A DNA stretch of 64,000 nt. Source: a virus. Under the pieces are notes generated by a model, which searched no databases, had not been told where the DNA came from, and saw only the letters and a program-made list of their open reading frames with translations. Shown here piece by piece: positions 2,523 through 61,896 of this stretch (the stretch's first letter is position 1; each line of letters begins with the position of its first letter). The translations under genes and the position numbers were made by a program. The DNA lies in IMG/VR virus record IMGVR_UViG_3300045988_178640. One strand, 5' to 3'.

Positions 2523-4255
2523 CCATGAAGCATCTTGGGAACATCAGAAAAATCAACGTGGACAATGTGGAATCTGTGGACTGCGTTATTGGCGGAAGCC
2601 CTTGTCAGGACTTGTCCATCGCCGGGAAACGCGCCGGACTTGACGGTGAACGAAGCGGACTGTTTATGGAGCAAATACGGATATGCAGGGAGATGAGAGA
2701 AAGTGACAAAGCGAGAGGAAAAACAGGTATCGATGTTCGACCTAGATTCTGCGTTTGGGAGAACGTGCCAGGGGCCTTGTCCAGCCACAGCGGAGAAGAT
2801 TTCAGAATCGTGCTTGAAGAATTTTGCAAAGTTGCCGACCCAAGCGCTCATGTACATGAACCTGCAAACGGGAAATGGAAATCTGCTGGGTGCATCGTGG
2901 GAAACGGTTACAGCGTTGCCTGGCGAATCATGGACGCCCGTTACTACGGAGTGCCCCAGCGCCGTCGTAGAATCTCGCTTGTCGCAGATTTTGCAGGTGG
3001 ATGCGCCCCCCAGATTTTATTTGACGAGCAAGGCATGCGCTGGAATCTTGAGACGAGCCGAAAAGCGTGGGAAAGCATTACCAGCCATGCTACAGGAAGC
3101 GTTGGAGGAAGCTGTGGCATTGGGGTAATCCTGAACGATCAGGGCGGAAATCGAATGAATGTATCCGAGACTGTGGCAAGCACACTTCGGGCACAGGAAC
3201 ATGGGCACCCTCCGGTCATTGTACAGGATGCTACTGATGTAAAATGCCTGAACCCGTGGGATTTCCAGAGTAAACGTCTATTTGACGCAAATGGAATTTA
3301 CCATAGTTTGTATGCGGGTGAAAACGGCGGCGGCAAGGGCTACCGGGAGGACGTGTGCTACACGCTGAACACCATCGACCGCCCGGCAATCTGCTTCAAG
3401 ACCGAACATGGCGCAAAGGTACGGTCATCTGCCGCACCCGAAACGGTTACTCCAACGATGGAAAGCGAACCAAGTCGGAAAACTGTGCCGGAGCTTGTTT
3501 ACTCCATTGAGGGTAGCGCTGTTGACAGGGAAAAGGCACAGAATGGAAAAGGCTTTTCGGAAGACGTTTCCCCCACACTGAATGTACAGGACAAGCATGC
3601 TGTTTGCTATGACGCAAGAGGCAATGGGGACGGCAAAACCGTATGCACGATTACGGGTGACCATTGCGACAGAATCACCGACTATACGCCGCTGGTTCTT
3701 GCGACAGACCAAGGTGGGGTAGAAATTGGAAAAGATGAAAGTTCGTGTCTCATGGCAGGGCATGAAAGACCGATTGTAACGGCGGTAGATTGTATTATGG
3801 CGAAACCACCACGGAAATACATTATTCGCCGTCTAACCCCCTTGGAATGTAGCCGCTTACAGGGCTTGCCTGATGACCATGCAAACGTTCCATTGCAACA
3901 AACCGTAACAGATAGCGAATTGGACTTTTGGCGTGAAGTGTGGGTTGAATGGGCTGAAATAAACGGGAAGAAGCCCAAGACGGACAAGCAGATTCAAAAA
4001 CGGCTACAATCCCCCATTTCGGAAAGCAACCAGTACCAGATTTACGGGAACGGTATCGCCCTTCCGCAGTGGGTATGGGTGCTGGGACGCATTTGCGAAG
4101 TGCTAGGGAAAGAGCGGCCAACGATGGCAAGTTTGTTCGACGGTTCCGGCAGTTTTCCGCTGATATGGGAAGCCATTAACGGGAAGGGCACGGCGCTATG
4201 GTCCAGCGAGGTAAACCCGGATGCAATCAGAGTGAGCAAGTACCGAATTGGATAG
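2519..4255 (+). CDS. dcm: DNA (cytosine-5) methyltransferase, circularly permuted, with very large TRD
   Basis: Motif order is IV GGSPCQDLS, VI WENVPG, VIII GVPQRRRRISLV, ~300-aa TRD, IX RRLTPLECSRLQGLPD, X YGNGIALP, then I/II SLFDGSGSFPL...SSEVNPDAIRV at the extreme C-terminus. Confidence 0.9.
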   Translation: MTMKHLGNIRKINVDNVESVDCVIGGSPCQDLSIAGKRAGLDGERSGLFMEQIRICREMRESDKARGKTGIDVRPRFCVWENVPGALSSHSGEDFRIVLEEFCKVADPSAHVHEPANGKWKSAGCIVGNGYSVAWRIMDARYYGVPQRRRRISLVADFAGGCAPQILFDEQGMRWNLETSRKAWESITSHATGSVGGSCGIGVILNDQGGNRMNVSETVASTLRAQEHGHPPVIVQDATDVKCLNPWDFQSKRLFDANGIYHSLYAGENGGGKGYREDVCYTLNTIDRPAICFKTEHGAKVRSSAAPETVTPTMESEPSRKTVPELVYSIEGSAVDREKAQNGKGFSEDVSPTLNVQDKHAVCYDARGNGDGKTVCTITGDHCDRITDYTPLVLATDQGGVEIGKDESSCLMAGHERPIVTAVDCIMAKPPRKYIIRRLTPLECSRLQGLPDDHANVPLQQTVTDSELDFWREVWVEWAEINGKKPKTDKQIQKRLQSPISESNQYQIYGNGIALPQWVWVLGRICEVLGKERPTMASLFDGSGSFPLIWEAINGKGTALWSSEVNPDAIRVSKYRIG

Positions 4256-55348: not shown

Positions 55349-56293
55349 TTACGCGTTGGCGATACGGTTGAAGATACGATTGGCCTTATCAAACAAAGCG
55401 GAGTAATCGCGGGCGATATAACGGTTGGTGACGGAAGCGCCGGTTCCATCGGAATGCATGAGGAACAGAGATACCTCGCCATCGTTAAAGCCACGCTTGC
55501 GAAGGAGAGAAGCCGCCGTGTGGCGCAGGGCGTGTGTGCGAACCCCGGCATGGCCGGAGAAACCCCTGGCCGCCGCCTCCACCAGATTGCTCATGGCGTT
55601 GCGGGCGAAGGGAAGCCAGAAACCGGACTTGTCAACAAAGCCGAACAGGGGGGCCGAACCAGTGCAGGAAGCGGGGCGAAAGCCGCTATGCAGATAGTCA
55701 GCAATAGCGGCTTTTGCCACATCGGAGAACAGAACAGTGCCGTTTTTTCCCCCCTTGGCGTTGCGAACGCGGATGGTTCCCTGTTCCCAATCCAGATCAT
55801 CCGGGGTGATGGCGCAGAGGGAGGAACAGCGCATACCGGAGGTGATGAACAGAGTGAGGATAGCCCGGTTGCGGGCGTAGGACTTTTTGTGCATGAAGGA
55901 TGGGGACTGGTTGGTGAGAACCATGCGAAACTCCTTTTCCGAAAGGATGTTACGGGAGGTGTCCTTGCAATCCGATTCCTTTACGGCGACGGACATAAGG
56001 CTTTTTTTGAAGGGAGAACGGGTAATAAACTCAATATCTGCACAAAATTCAAAGAAAGTATGCAGATGATTGACGTAAAGGCGCAGAGAGGAAGGAGCGA
56101 CCTTTTGCGACATGGCGTCCTTCCAGGCGACCAGGGAAGCGGGGGTAATATCCTGCACCTGCTGGACGCCGTTTTCGGCGAGAAAATCGCCGAAGAAGCG
56201 AAGGGTACGCTGACAATTCTGGATGGTGGTTTCCGCCTTATTGGCGGAGATGAGGGTGTGAATATAAGATTCAACCGCTTTGGTGTAGTACAT
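55349..56293 (-). CDS. int: tyrosine recombinase / integrase (XerC/D-like size)
   Basis: SAM-like N-domain. Catalytic box SGMRCSSLCAI, HALRHTAASLL, and a terminal ...VTNRYI Tyr. Confidence 0.9.
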   Translation of the reverse strand: MYYTKAVESYIHTLISANKAETTIQNCQRTLRFFGDFLAENGVQQVQDITPASLVAWKDAMSQKVAPSSLRLYVNHLHTFFEFCADIEFITRSPFKKSLMSVAVKESDCKDTSRNILSEKEFRMVLTNQSPSFMHKKSYARNRAILTLFITSGMRCSSLCAITPDDLDWEQGTIRVRNAKGGKNGTVLFSDVAKAAIADYLHSGFRPASCTGSAPLFGFVDKSGFWLPFARNAMSNLVEAAARGFSGHAGVRTHALRHTAASLLRKRGFNDGEVSLFLMHSDGTGASVTNRYIARDYSALFDKANRIFNRIANA

Positions 56294-56354
56294 TTTTACG
56301 ATAACCTCCTTCTATCCTTTGACACTCGGGAGACATTTATGTTAGAATAAAAAA

Positions 56355-56459
56355 TGCTTTCCTGAATGCCTGGGTGGTTCCTGCGTTTGGGTGAGCTTTG
56401 TGATTCCCACCCGTGCGGCGTGTCTTGGCGGAGATGACGCGCGGGTGGGAACTTTTAGG
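56355..56459 (+). ncRNA. predicted small RNA convergent with the RHH gene, between RHH and int
   Basis: Promoter TTGACA (56319) -18 nt- TGtTAGAAT (56340-56348). Terminator TTCCCACCCG...CGGGTGGGAA + CTTTT ends 4 nt before the RHH stop. Confidence 0.45.
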
Positions 56460-56463
56460 TTGG

Positions 56464-56661
56464 TTACGGGTGACAGCAGCGGTTATATTCCGCCTGAATG
56501 AGGGAAGCGAGAATATCCGTTTTGGGGCGGCCCGTGGCTTTGTGGATGGATTCCAGCTGGCGAACGGTGGTTGGGGTCGCGCGGCTGGAAAGCATGCGGC
56601 TTTTCGCTTCGCTGCCGGTGACAGGTCTGCCGACGGGCTGTGGGATGGAAGCCTTTTTCGT
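56464..56661 (-). CDS. ribbon-helix-helix protein with no canonical start codon (ACG after a strong SD?)
   Basis: ..PVGRPVTGSEAKSRMLSSRATPTTVRQLESIHKATGRPKTDILASLIQAEY aligns with the RHH paralogs. An in-frame TAA lies 2 codons upstream of the ACG at 56661. The first ATG (56595) is downstream of the conserved GRP. Confidence 0.45.
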   Translation of the reverse strand, partial: TKKASIPQPVGRPVTGSEAKSRMLSSRATPTTVRQLESIHKATGRPKTDILASLIQAEYNRCCHP

Positions 56662-56718
56662 TTTTTACACCTCCGTTTACAATTCAGCAACAAGGCTAAC
56701 TGCTGTTTACATTTATGA

Positions 56719-56747
56719 ATTGTAATACATAATTGTGGTCATGTCAA
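56719..56747 (-). promoter_or_regulatory. consensus sigma70 promoter for the RHH-int-Bro transcript
   Basis: Minus strand reads TTGACA-17 nt-TACAAT. Confidence 0.65.
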
Positions 56748-56803
56748 TGCATTTTTCAAAAAAGTATTGAAAAGTAAACAAACGACCACGATTATGAACA
56801 CTG

Positions 56804-57786: not shown

Positions 57787-58578
57787 CTACAGGAGAGGAT
57801 GGCAATAGCGGTTGAGGAAGAAAACCTGTCCCTTGCCGGTGACCATGGGGACGAAATAGGTTTGCTGGGCCCTGGGGCCGCAGGAGCAGACCCGTTCGCT
57901 GACGCGCATGAGACCCTGGGCCATGCTGCGCTAGCTGGGCATATTACGGGACTGGCCGGTTTTAAGCAGCCAACCATCGTTACGGAGCGTTTCAAACAGA
58001 CGGGCGCGGCCAATATCCAGACCGTTTTGATGCATGAGCTTTGCCAGATCGCCAACGGGAATATCGTTAGGGGCGGCGGCCACGTCATCGGCGAACTTGA
58101 CCTTGTGAGCGTCCCGCTGAACCTGCGCTTGCAGCCGTTCCTTTTCCACCTGATTCTCAATACGGAGGGAACGTTCGCTATTCCACTCAGTAAAGAGCTT
58201 GGTGACGAACTGGGGAGAGGTAAAGAGCCTGTCCAGCGCCTCGGGTGACAGATACATGCCGTTATCCACCACCTGCACGGCCACATCGTCAAACAGCCAG
58301 TGGTTGAACTCCTGCGCGGCGGGAAGGTGGGACTGGGAGATGAGACGGAGAACATCGCCCTTGGGGATGACAGAAACCTGCAAAGTCTTGCTGGGGCTTT
58401 GGGGATGAGGTAGGTGGTGTTTCACCACCCACTGGCAATGTTGCTTGATAGCGTTTACGGTATCTGAATAACCAAGAGCTTTTGCTACGTCTTTGGCGAC
58501 GTAGTACCACTCTCCGTCTACAAGTACCTTGCGAACCTGACCGAACTTCGGGTTTTCCATGATGGTAATATCGTTCAT
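57787..58578 (-). pseudogene. Bro-N / KilAC antirepressor paralog interrupted by one in-frame TAG (57931-57933)
   Basis: Reads ...RNMPS-TAG-RSMAQGLMRVSE...TGKGQVFFLNRY, against the paralog ...YNMPTQKSMELGLMRIKE...LGKGQVYFVNKY. The TAG aligns with Gln (CAG). Confidence 0.6.
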
Positions 58579-60770: not shown

Positions 60771-60840
60771 TATATTTCACTCCTTGCTGGTCGATGAGTT
60801 AAGGGTTGACCGAAGGAGAAAAGCATGTTAGAATTTGCTG

Positions 60841-60915
60841 GTCTCCAGCGGTTGTTGGGGCGCTGGGTTTGCCGCAATCTTGCGAGGATGGGTCGGCAAA
60901 CCCTCTTTATTTTTT
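60841..60915 (+). ncRNA. predicted small RNA 1 (between the RHH gene and Rha, convergent with RHH)
   Basis: Promoter TTGACC (60806) -17 nt- TGtTAGAAT (60826-60834). 5' hairpin GCTGG-TCT-CCAGC. Terminator GGGTTTGCCG...CGGCAAACCC + TCTTTATTTTTT overlaps the RHH stop. Confidence 0.5.
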
Positions 60916-61080
60916 CAGGCTTTCGTAAACGACCCGTATTCCTTTTCGGATAACATCGGCCTTTGTCATGCCGGTTATCTTGCAACACTCTTCCAGCATG
61001 CGCACATCTTCATCGGACATGCGGATGCGGGTTTCGTGCTTTTTGGGGTCGGAAGTCGGCCTTCCGGTTTTTGGCGACAT
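60907..61080 (-). CDS. ribbon-helix-helix (CopG/Arc-like) protein
   Basis: MSPKTGRPTSDPKKHETRIRMSDEDVRMLEECCKITGMTKADVIRKGIRVVYESL. Confidence 0.75.
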   Translation of the reverse strand: MSPKTGRPTSDPKKHETRIRMSDEDVRMLEECCKITGMTKADVIRKGIRVVYESLKK

Positions 61081-61142: not shown

Positions 61143-61196
61143 TCCCTTTTGTGAAATTTTGTTGACCCAAGGAGGATTGCATGTTAAGATTTACAA

Positions 61197-61286
61197 GCCC
61201 CCTTCGGGTGGGTGGCCCCGCTGGATGCTGGAATTGTGAGAGATTGCAAGCATCGGCGGGGATTTCCCTATTCGCCTATTTCTTCC
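61197..61286 (+). ncRNA. predicted small RNA 2
   Basis: Promoter TTGACC (61162) -17 nt- TGtTAAGAT (61182-61190). 13-bp bulged hairpin CCCCGCTGGATGCT...AGCATCGGCGGGG, then a T-rich tail overlapping the stop of RHH 61268. Confidence 0.4.
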
Positions 61287-61444
61287 TTGACCTTGCGTCG
61301 GAACCAATCGGTTCTGGTCTCTCCGCGCTCCTTTAAGCGCTTGTCGAGCTTTTCAACCTTTTCAGGTTCTACCATGAACACGATTTGTTTCAGTTTCTTT
61401 CGGCGGTCGCGGAAGTATTCGGCACGGCTTTTGCCGTCAGCCAC
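61268..61444 (-). CDS. ribbon-helix-helix protein (different subtype, no GRP motif)
   Basis: GTG start 7 nt after AAAGGAGG. KQIVFMVEPEKVEKLDKRLKERGETRTDWFRRKVKEEI fits the beta-alpha-alpha pattern. Confidence 0.6.
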   Translation of the reverse strand: MADGKSRAEYFRDRRKKLKQIVFMVEPEKVEKLDKRLKERGETRTDWFRRKVKEEIGE

Positions 61445-61612
61445 ATTCAATCCTCCTTTCGTTGTAGCTAGATACAGCATAATATGTAGCTAACTACAAG
61501 TCAAGCCCTTTTGTGATTTTTCCTGAAAAAAGTGTACAAAAAACCTCCCTTCAAACAATACGAACAAATGTTCCGTCTTGCCCAAAGGGAGTGGCGTGCT
61601 TATAATAAACAT

Positions 61613-61686
61613 GCAGCATCCCTTTGGGCTGTTGTGGTGGGAACAGTAAGACTAGTTTGGCGACCGGCTTACTGTTCTTTTTTTGC
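61613..61686 (+). ncRNA. predicted small RNA 3
   Basis: Promoter TTGCCC (61578) -17 nt- TATAAT (61601). Terminator GAACAGTAAG...CTTACTGTTC + TTTTTTT; its 3' arm encodes the last codons of RHH 61669. Confidence 0.5.
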
Positions 61687-61896
61687 GTCTGTTTCTTTTT
61701 CCAGAAGGGATTGATAGACGCGGTCAATTCCTTCTTTGATAACCTGCGTTTTGGACCAGCCCGTCTTTTTCATGCAGAAGTTTACTTTTTCCTCTTCTTT
61801 TTCGGAAAGACGGAAGCCGATTCTGGAACGCTTTGGGTCATTCGTAGGTCTACCGGTGCGTACCGTTTGCCTCACCTCCTTATCGGGTACGCACAC
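61669..61896 (-). CDS. ribbon-helix-helix (CopG/Arc-like) protein
   Basis: ..RTGRPTNDPKRSRIGFRLSEKEEEKVNFCMKKTGWSKTQVIKEGIDRVYQSL. Start uncertain: the ORF-track GTG at 61896 lies only a few nt below the -10, and an ACG at 61866 sits 8 nt after AAGGAGG. Confidence 0.65.
   Translation of the reverse strand: MCVPDKEVRQTVRTGRPTNDPKRSRIGFRLSEKEEEKVNFCMKKTGWSKTQVIKEGIDRVYQSLLEKETDAKKEQ

Follow-up and report, generated by a model that had tools for sequence, protein, structure and literature searches.

A predicted cis-antisense RNA gene in the leader of a phage recombinase gene

What lies between the recombinase gene int and the small open reading frame (ORF) that precedes it in the virus record IMGVR_UViG_3300045988_178640 of IMG/VR, and how might it govern the expression of int? 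The DNA that we analysed, hereafter the window, is 64,000 nucleotides (nt) long; the small ORF (56464-56661) resembles ribbon-helix-helix (RHH) repressors. An earlier note, made from the sequence alone, had proposed that one leftward promoter drives both genes, that a convergent promoter next to the int start makes a short RNA ending beside the RHH stop codon, and that int is thereby wired to the same module as the antirepressor gene Rha of this genome. The reading that we favour, with some reserve, is that the 170-nt leader of int holds a complete gene for a cis-antisense RNA and that a translational switch driven by this countertranscript gates the recombinase.

Convergent promoters and a predicted RNA

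The int gene (55349-56293, minus strand; 314 amino acids) matches Phage_integrase (PF00589, E=3e-18) and, in an N-terminal SAM-like domain, SAM_1 (PF02899, E=3e-7), and its catalytic residues R141, K180, H254, R257, H280 and Y292 are unchanged across 14 homologues. Judged by this C-terminal catalytic domain with its Arg, His and Tyr residues, plus the N-terminal SAM-like domain, its product is a tyrosine recombinase. The gene is preceded by a Shine-Dalgarno (SD) sequence, AAGGAGG (56305-56311, minus strand).

We scanned the region from 54 to 64 kb for promoters, scoring the matches out of 12, and found 21 promoter-like sites against 8.0 +/- 3.3 in shuffled sequences. Only three sites reach 11/12, and two of them flank the locus, at the places given for them in the earlier note. 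One is the sense promoter, TTGACA-17-TACAAT (56719-56747, minus strand), which would drive an RHH-int transcript. The other is the antisense promoter, TTGACA-18-TGtTAGAAT with a TG extension (56319-56348, plus strand), whose -35 hexamer begins 26 nt from the int ATG. In 11 sequences of this promoter (9 distinct) TTGACA and TG are invariant and TAnAAT is nearly so, while the flanks vary. The -10 context ATGTTAGAAT does recur, as the earlier note had pointed out, at 56339-56348 and at 60825-60834 in front of Rha.

The predicted antisense RNA (56355-56457, plus strand) is about 100 nt long and, by its fold, its conservation and the covariance model R1, would consist of a 5' hairpin (56356-56396), a linker and a terminator (56404-56456, plus strand) with the apex U(UGGC)G. 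The arms of the terminator hairpin, TTCCCACCCG...CGGGTGGGAA, lie at 56404-56424 and 56431-56451, and are followed on the plus strand by C-TTTT (56452-56456). Its minus-strand copy runs into UCACAAAGC, with no U-tract, and therefore only a plus-strand RNA can be terminated there. The hairpin and T-run beside the RHH stop codon (56464-56466) are where the earlier note put them, although the gap is 7 nt and not the 4 nt that it gave. Since no other minus-strand promoter-like site was found by the scan between the RHH ORF and int, and the sense copy of the hairpin has no U-tract, co-transcription of RHH and int from 56747-56719, also claimed in that note, is the simplest reading.

The stretch 56355-56462 folds at -54.5 kcal/mol, compared with -35.2 +/- 3.2 for dinucleotide shuffles (z=-6.0, 0/200). 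Nine distinct-sequence versions, each folded alone, share one shape: the predicted 5' end opens a hairpin of some 40 nt, which a short linker separates from the terminator hairpin and its U-run. The z-scores range from -2.0 to -6.3. The antisense strand folds 10-20 kcal/mol more stably than its complement because of G-U pairs (-54.5 vs -35.3 in the window, -34.5 vs -18.1 in locus L011, -43.1 vs -23.2 in L014). In an alignable group of seven, RNAalifold predicts 34 pairs, 5 of which show double compensatory changes, and model R1 matches the antisense RNA in L001-L005, L017 and L010. No Rfam family reached the gathering threshold over the whole window, and none that was relevant appeared at E<=10 in 56200-56800; a supposed resemblance to the signal recognition particle (SRP/4.5S) RNA had no Rfam support and was dropped. 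We also set aside a plus-strand ORF at 56391-56501 as a coding alternative, because the indels of L003-L005 are not multiples of three, and a 9-nt complementarity of the RNA 5' end to the RHH ATG region, which is at about chance level in 650 nt.

A further feature common to these RNAs is the motif TTGGCG, contained in 11 of the 17 predicted antisense RNAs where shuffling predicts 0.9, and always as a UGGC loop closed by U-G at the apex of a hairpin. Its sites are 56424-56429 and 61657-61662 in the window, and loci L007, L010, L011, L013, L014 and L015. The apical UUGG conforms to the YUNR U-turn loops known from antisense RNAs. For loop-linear pairing, the work on plasmid pMV158 cites Franch et al. 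1999 (PMC4485353).

These features bear on a simpler explanation, in which the plus-strand promoter acts through transcriptional interference only, as a roadblock or collision partner, and its RNA has no function beyond termination before the upstream gene. The promoters are near consensus, convergent and conserved in relatives, and convergent transcription matters in the repressor-plus-antisense system of pIP501 (PMC5703833), which speaks for such a role. Interference alone, however, requires neither a strand-specific two-hairpin fold across divergent versions, nor the apical U(UGGC)G motif at its observed frequency, nor the complementarity to the SD, described below, that is better for cognate partners. 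We therefore consider this explanation rather unlikely.

The leader in relatives and the small RHH-like gene

Searches with int returned 24 homologues, of 98-32% identity. Among the GTDB genomes of 185,579 species there is a single relative, at 31% identity; IMG/VR gave nothing when searched with the int protein alone, and only relatives of about 30% identity when searched with the alignment. Our comparison covered the DNA around twelve int homologues and a sister phage that a pattern search had turned up. Relatives keep the order antirepressor, small gene, SSB, intergenic region, int and SH3-domain gene. The RHH ORF is found in the closest of them only, L001, L002 and L017 (int identity 91-98%). 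L003 (81%) and L004 (72%) lack it and retain some 150 nt adjoining int, in which the plus-strand promoter reads TTGACA with TGnTAGAAT or TGnTAAAAT; L005, L007, L011, L014 and L015 (70-50%) lack it too and have the same layout in increasingly different sequence.

In all, eight distinct-sequence int homologues (45-81% identity) keep the antisense promoter, the 5' hairpin and the terminator, seven of them without an RHH gene, and this conservation supports the convergent RNA gene that the earlier note had placed between RHH and int. A uniform scan of eight distinct-sequence loci locates the antisense -35 element 24-57 nt upstream of the start codon in all eight, and a sense promoter 199-246 nt upstream in seven (10/12 cut-off); that of L004 is weaker and was read by eye (TTGCTT...TAAGAT). 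In the window the RHH insert moves the sense promoter out to 425 nt ahead of the int start; the junction of this insert falls exactly at the boundary between the RHH stop and the antisense terminator. The eighth homologue, L010, has this RNA (model R1, 28 bits, E=2e-4) and its promoter before a different gene, of 212 amino acids. By this distribution the predicted antisense RNA is an old, portable feature of the int leader, to which the RHH gene was added in one sublineage; as the RNA is present in seven leaders without RHH, the gate would predate the RHH gene and not depend on it. The proposal that integration is coupled to an immI-like switch is narrowed accordingly to, at most, a sublineage-specific addition to an older RNA gate.

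Two further leaders carry elements of their own. Upstream of the int of L010 (~3790-3990), tandem copies of about 25 nt (...CGAAACGGAAACGATTCGARAGGAGYCGAAACGG...), iteron-like, take the place of an antisense RNA. In the int leader of L013 (~3900-3975), a hairpin in the sense direction, CCCCGCAUCGCACC...GGUGCGGGG, leads into a long U-rich stretch and resembles a terminator or attenuator.

Conservation next to int could also have its origin at the DNA level. The segment would then be attP, or another recombination or structural site, and its invariance would reflect identity with a host attB. An attP usually adjoins int, and a 23-nt core, CGTGTCTTGGCGGAGATGACGCG, is indeed unchanged in seven sequences. 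Against this, the invariant 22-mer has no exact match in the genomes of 185,579 species or in IMG/VR, a 19-mer, sought in 241 million metagenome records, turned up only in a single sister phage and in three unrelated chance contexts, the segment shows promoter and terminator signatures and a G-U-dependent strand asymmetry, and the more distant int loci have the same architecture in a different sequence. With no host-context match to the core in IMG/VR, the GTDB genomes or the metagenomes, we rejected attP, and hold any explanation of this kind to be very improbable.

The small ORF itself (56464-56661, minus strand; 65 codons plus stop) has no match in Pfam and a marginal one in PHROG (phrog_876, 'transcriptional repressor', E=0.1), a family that two neighbouring small proteins match at 8e-17 and 3e-12. 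HMMER over 1.8 billion representatives recovered a family of homologues of 63-80 amino acids, among them P0030 (E=5e-6, 39% identity), which shares GRPxxGxExK...RATxTTxR...TGxxKTD with the int-side protein and itself matches Pfam RHH_1 (CopG family) below threshold (E=0.013, profile positions 2-38 of 39). AlphaFold2, run on the single sequence, placed two confident helices at 30-43 and 47-63 (predicted local distance difference test, pLDDT, 85-91), downstream of a coil at the expected site of the ribbon strand; Foldseek with this model against the PDB gave nothing significant, and a profile search of PDB sequences gave nothing relevant. Taken together, the ORF probably encodes an RHH protein.

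Where it would start is less straightforward. The frame that the earlier note had given as 56464-56661 exists, but codon 56661 is ACG. The frame is open from 56664, and its first ATG, GTG or TTG is the ATG at 56595. Members of the family have Met about five residues ahead of GRP, at which place both the int-side RHH (56661-56659, 8 nt after GGAGG at 56674-56670) and the RHH at 61669-61866 have ACG; a third paralogue has ATG at the expected start (61078-61080). In the RHH at 61669-61866 the ACG is at 61864-61866, and the sole upstream GTG (61896) lies directly against the promoter -10 and so outside the mRNA. Initiation at ACG, or a deliberately weak translation, is possible for these genes. 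The sense-strand homopolymer at 56661-56666 has 6 A in the window and 7 A in L001, L002 and L017, and a gene call of 78 amino acids on another contig (P0025) implies 7 A as well. With 6 A, GTG-TAA is in frame with RHH; with 7 A, the frame is open up to a TTG lying before the SD. The difference would be neutral if RHH starts at ACG; otherwise the window copy would be a frameshift variant or an assembly error.

Around the sense promoter we found two candidate operators. A perfect 10-bp inverted repeat, TTACAATTCA / TGAATTGTAA (56677-56686 and 56716-56725), overlaps the -10 with one arm and abuts the RHH SD with the other; inverted repeats, read by eye, also surround the -10 of other RHH promoters in the window. 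A second repeat, GACCACAATTAT / GACCACGATTAT (56729-56740 and 56784-56795), flanks the -35 and is a candidate operator for another repressor; these two are its only zero-mismatch copies in the window. The RHH protein, if made, would repress its own promoter at both operator-like repeats. With TGTTTACATTT/AAAAGTAAACA, the sense promoter lies within three nested symmetric elements (56677-56795). The palindromes at the sense promoters of relatives differ (e.g. TATAACTTATAATAAGTTATA in L007, and TTCACAAATYGTG twice in L006), which suggests operators of differing specificity.

Two RNA structures on the RHH message should be mentioned. Its 5' untranslated region has a hairpin, CAGCA-N11-UGCUG (56685-56705), which in L017 is CAGUA...UACUG, both sides being changed and the pairing kept. 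In minimum-energy folds of the full intercistronic RNA, the RHH-stop region CGUAACC..CCU (56457-56470) pairs with the int SD region AGG.AGGUUAUCG (56298-56311). If this pairing is real, ribosomes terminating on RHH would open the int ribosome site, a long-range translational coupling.

Pairing boxes and a proposed switch

How could an RNA that leaves the int SD uncovered control int translation? All versions carry, on the antisense strand of the antisense-promoter spacer, a motif rich in purines (GGGAG, GGAGG, GAGAGG and similar), whose pyrimidine complement starts the RNA. On the int mRNA this gives the order B', loop with the -10 complement, C', -35 complement, SD and AUG. B' (CAUUCAGGAAAGC, 56356-56368, minus strand) is purine-rich, SD-like and covered by the 5' end of the antisense RNA. 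C' (GUCUCCCGAG, 56325-56334, minus strand) is pyrimidine-rich and, lying in the promoter spacer, outside antisense coverage; it is a candidate anti-SD box with support at the family level, the window instance being weak.

C' shows complementarity to B' as well as to the SD, and this varies in step with the SD of the locus: the C'/SD pairs are CUUCCUGC/GCAGGAGG in L004, UUUCCUCC/GGAGGAAA in L005, UUCCUCUC/GAGAGGAA in L011 and CUUUCG/CGAAAG in L007. We assessed this covariation by comparing cognate with non-cognate duplex energies, with permutation. In ten cassettes, C':SD averages -11.3 kcal/mol for cognate and -8.7 for non-cognate partners (p=0.0004), and B':C' -10.8 and -8.5 (p=0.002). In a set of thirteen, which includes five cassettes preceding antirepressor or other genes, the values are -12.3 and -9.6 for C':SD (p=2e-5) and -13.5 and -9.0 for B':C' (p<2e-5). 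If the antisense-covered stretch is kept from pairing during folding, a C':SD helix appears in L003, L011, L014, L015, L010 and the Rha cassette. The B':C' hairpin is present in the predicted leader fold of the window.

These results also bear on whether the RNA acts mainly in trans, so that its place in the int leader would be incidental. It could then mediate immunity, engage in cross-talk with leaders of relatives infecting the same cell, or regulate host mRNAs with the pyrimidine-rich stretch at its 5' end. Its 5' ends resemble anti-SD seeds, otherwise different cassettes have the apical loop motif in common, and there are several cassettes per genome. A cis target is indicated, on the other side, by the tightly conserved position relative to the downstream start (24-57 nt) and by the promoter-embedded box, which tracks the cognate SD. 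A mainly trans-acting RNA thus appears improbable.

The duplex that sense and antisense RNA would form may instead have its effect through processing, with RNase III cutting the ~100-bp duplex and separating int from the RHH message, or through countertranscript-driven attenuation of transcription, in place of SD sequestration. Full complementarity over ~100 nt would favour either route, and two sites look like attenuators of the pT181/pIP501 type (PMC5703833): the C':SD hairpin of L004 runs into UGUGUUUUUU, and in the fourth cassette of the window a pyrimidine box pairs with GAAGGGAGG ahead of T6. The window int leader, L005 and L011, by contrast, have no U-run after the C':SD helix, and therefore attenuation cannot be the general mechanism. 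We judge this pair of routes unlikely, though a more serious contender than interference alone.

Under the translational switch that we favour, the strong antisense promoter would, as long as the sense promoter is repressed, fill the cell with RNA; this would pair with any leaky leader, cover B' and free C', and C' would close the int ribosome site. The long sense/antisense duplex would probably be exposed to RNases as well. In leaders free of antisense RNA, a local B':C' hairpin would leave the ribosome site open. Once the sense promoter is on, passing polymerases would occlude the antisense promoter, a B':C' hairpin would be the first to form on the nascent RNA, and int would be translated. 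The RNA would in this way keep the recombinase off unless sense transcription is strong, and mutual interference by convergent transcription should come on top. In the sublineage of the window, an RHH gene with its operator-bearing promoter would have recombined before the leader, giving dual control by protein and RNA.

Several observations weigh against such a switch. The related int genes of L006 and L013 have a short leader that lacks antisense promoter and RNA, and therefore the gate is dispensable. In L004, L005 and L007 the unconstrained minimum-energy fold already has the C':SD helix, so that the switch there would have to be kinetic. In the int cassette of the window, C':SD amounts to about 5 bp and -6.3 kcal/mol, no better than shuffles and 10th of the 13. 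The mean pairing probability of a fixed SD window does not separate cleanly between free and blocked folds, this being a crude measure confounded by the flanks. Shared ancestry among the cassettes complicates the permutation tests, although its effect should be to make these tests conservative. Finally, the RHH ORF has no canonical start codon at the expected place and its protein may be poorly synthesized.

Related cassettes and comparison with known systems

The same design is found elsewhere in the window. The cassette before Rha (60806-60904, plus strand, z=-3.2) has its promoter at 60806-60834 and a predicted RNA of about 64 nt; a third (61162-61262, plus strand, z=-3.6) lies downstream of the RHH at 61268-61480, and a fourth (61578-61682, plus strand, z=-3.2) downstream of the RHH at 61669-61866. 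Beyond the fourth, at ~61535-61575 on the minus strand, the pyrimidine box CUCCCUUU can pair with GAAGGGAGG and UUUUUU follows, with no gene after it; in its sequence this region looks like a countertranscript-controlled transcription attenuator ahead of the promoter 61504-61476.

Further cassettes precede antirepressor genes in L001, L002, L011, L013, L014 and L015. In IMG/VR, fourteen loci in unrelated phages encode RHH proteins like P0030. The distinct loci with enough downstream sequence show, in order, the RHH stop, the terminator complement at once, the 5' hairpin, the antisense promoter, an SD and an antirepressor gene; the antisense -35 lies 90-111 nt after the RHH stop, and the terminator U-run is the complement of the last RHH Lys codons and the stop. 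The targets are Rha+ANT, AntA+ORF6C, Bro-N or Rha proteins. On this comparative evidence, the usual target of the RHH-antisense RNA cassette is an antirepressor, and the cassette type is widespread.

The claim that the int cassette is the same as the one before Rha holds for its design, and the nearest family of the int-side RHH precedes antirepressors in other phages, but the two are separate copies. That int is wired to the same module finds no support: the int-side RHH gives no BLASTP alignment to the neighbouring RHH1, the operator-like inverted repeats differ, and the int-side RNA is not detectably homologous to the Rha-side RNA.

A wider picture, which we offer tentatively, takes in an uncultured tailed-phage clade (65-82 kb) and unrelated phages of 30-80 kb with the same RHH family. 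In these, portable countertranscript cassettes would separately gate antirepressors, small repressors and a recombinase, with an anti-SD in the promoter spacer, a 5' hairpin plus terminator RNA and the apical U(UGGC)G as hallmarks. They would be exchanged by recombination at the junction of RHH stop and antisense terminator, and shared loops may mediate RNA immunity or cross-talk between co-infecting phages.

The genome around these cassettes is that of a tailed phage, with helicase, methyltransferase, portal, tape measure and tail genes. The stretch from 48 to 63 kb, an early or regulatory arm read leftward, carries SSB, three antirepressor-type genes (two Bro-N/ANT, and Rha) and four small RHH-like genes. 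In the cultured-phage database the window has no close relative, only antirepressor fragments being matched. A Bro-N/ANT antirepressor gene (58578-57787, minus strand) has an in-frame TAG at 57931-57933, where L001, 96% identical, has CAG (Gln). Past it the frame is intact to its usual end; a search of the window for tRNA or tmRNA (transfer-messenger RNA) genes found none, and hence no suppressor tRNA. This TAG could be an amber mutation, mark a pseudogene or be a polymorphism.

If the proposed control of int is correct, recombinase expression in these phages would be gated by RNA, in a design documented mainly for plasmid replication control and the P22 antirepressor, and the low basal levels of Int and antirepressor would be explained. 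The same building block would be reused several times per genome and across unrelated phages of the Gram-positive type, and the fusion of an antirepressor-type RHH to the int leader would be a concrete case of regulatory-module shuffling. The cassettes would also be natural, compact and probably orthogonal riboregulators, with promoter and anti-SD overlaid, and would provide a testable signature for annotating antisense RNAs that now go without an Rfam match in metagenomic phage genomes.

Control by antisense RNA or RNA structure is known to keep the basal expression of recombinases low, as with the transposase in IS10 (RNA-OUT/RNA-IN) and Int in lambda (sib/OOP). RNA-OUT covers the transposase start site, and lambda sib acts from the 3' side through RNase III; to our knowledge, neither system has an RHH partner or a promoter-embedded anti-SD. 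In the literature on RHH/antisense/integrase or antirepressor cassettes of Gram-positive phages we found no description of this arrangement, which is not proof of its absence. In phage P22, Sar overlaps the ribosome site of ant.

The immI region of P22 (mnt, arc, sar, ant), in which Sar base-pairs with ant mRNA and blocks its translation (PMC2629481; PMC13397905), resembles the locus described here. Each is a phage cassette with an RHH repressor (Arc in P22, a probable one here), a convergent promoter for a small antisense RNA, and a gene downstream that is, or here would be, negatively controlled. In the Rha cassette and in the IMG/VR relatives of the int-side RHH the target, an antirepressor, is the same as well. 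At the int locus, unlike immI, the target is int, and the RNA is predicted to start 62 nt upstream of the ATG at 56293, with the SD outside it; unlike sar, the window RNA matches no Rfam family.

Like the repressor-plus-antisense systems pIP501 (CopR/RNAIII) and pT181 (PMC5703833), the locus combines convergent promoters with leader structures that would exclude each other according to whether the antisense RNA is bound. Those systems have a U-run terminator before the start codon (PMC5703833), whereas the alternative helix of the window int leader takes the SD and has no U-run. An attenuator-like U-run occurs only in L004 and in the fourth cassette of the window.

The closest likeness in layout is to copG-rnaII-repB of plasmid pMV158, where the RHH gene comes first and the countertranscript, confined to the intercistronic region, ends at a terminator adjoining the repressor gene; this RNA is complementary to mRNA immediately before the translation signals of the target, and inhibits translation (PMC4485353). 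The int locus has the same arrangement as pMV158/pLS1 (PMC4485353), with a small first gene that probably encodes an RHH protein, a predicted intercistronic RNA at 56355-56457, a terminator by the repressor gene and the int SD at 56305-56311 left uncovered. It differs in being carried by a phage and not a plasmid, and in its target, a tyrosine recombinase in place of a Rep initiator that sets copy number; its RNA would be of ~100 nt with two hairpins, while that of pMV158 is of 48 nt with a 5' tail and one hairpin (PMC4485353). Further, the two share no sequence homology, and the promoter-embedded anti-SD box is found here only. Compared with these systems, what would be new in the phage locus is the recombinase target, a two-hairpin RNA of ~100 nt outside the described families, an anti-SD box laid over the promoter of the RNA itself, and the presence of several such cassettes in one genome.

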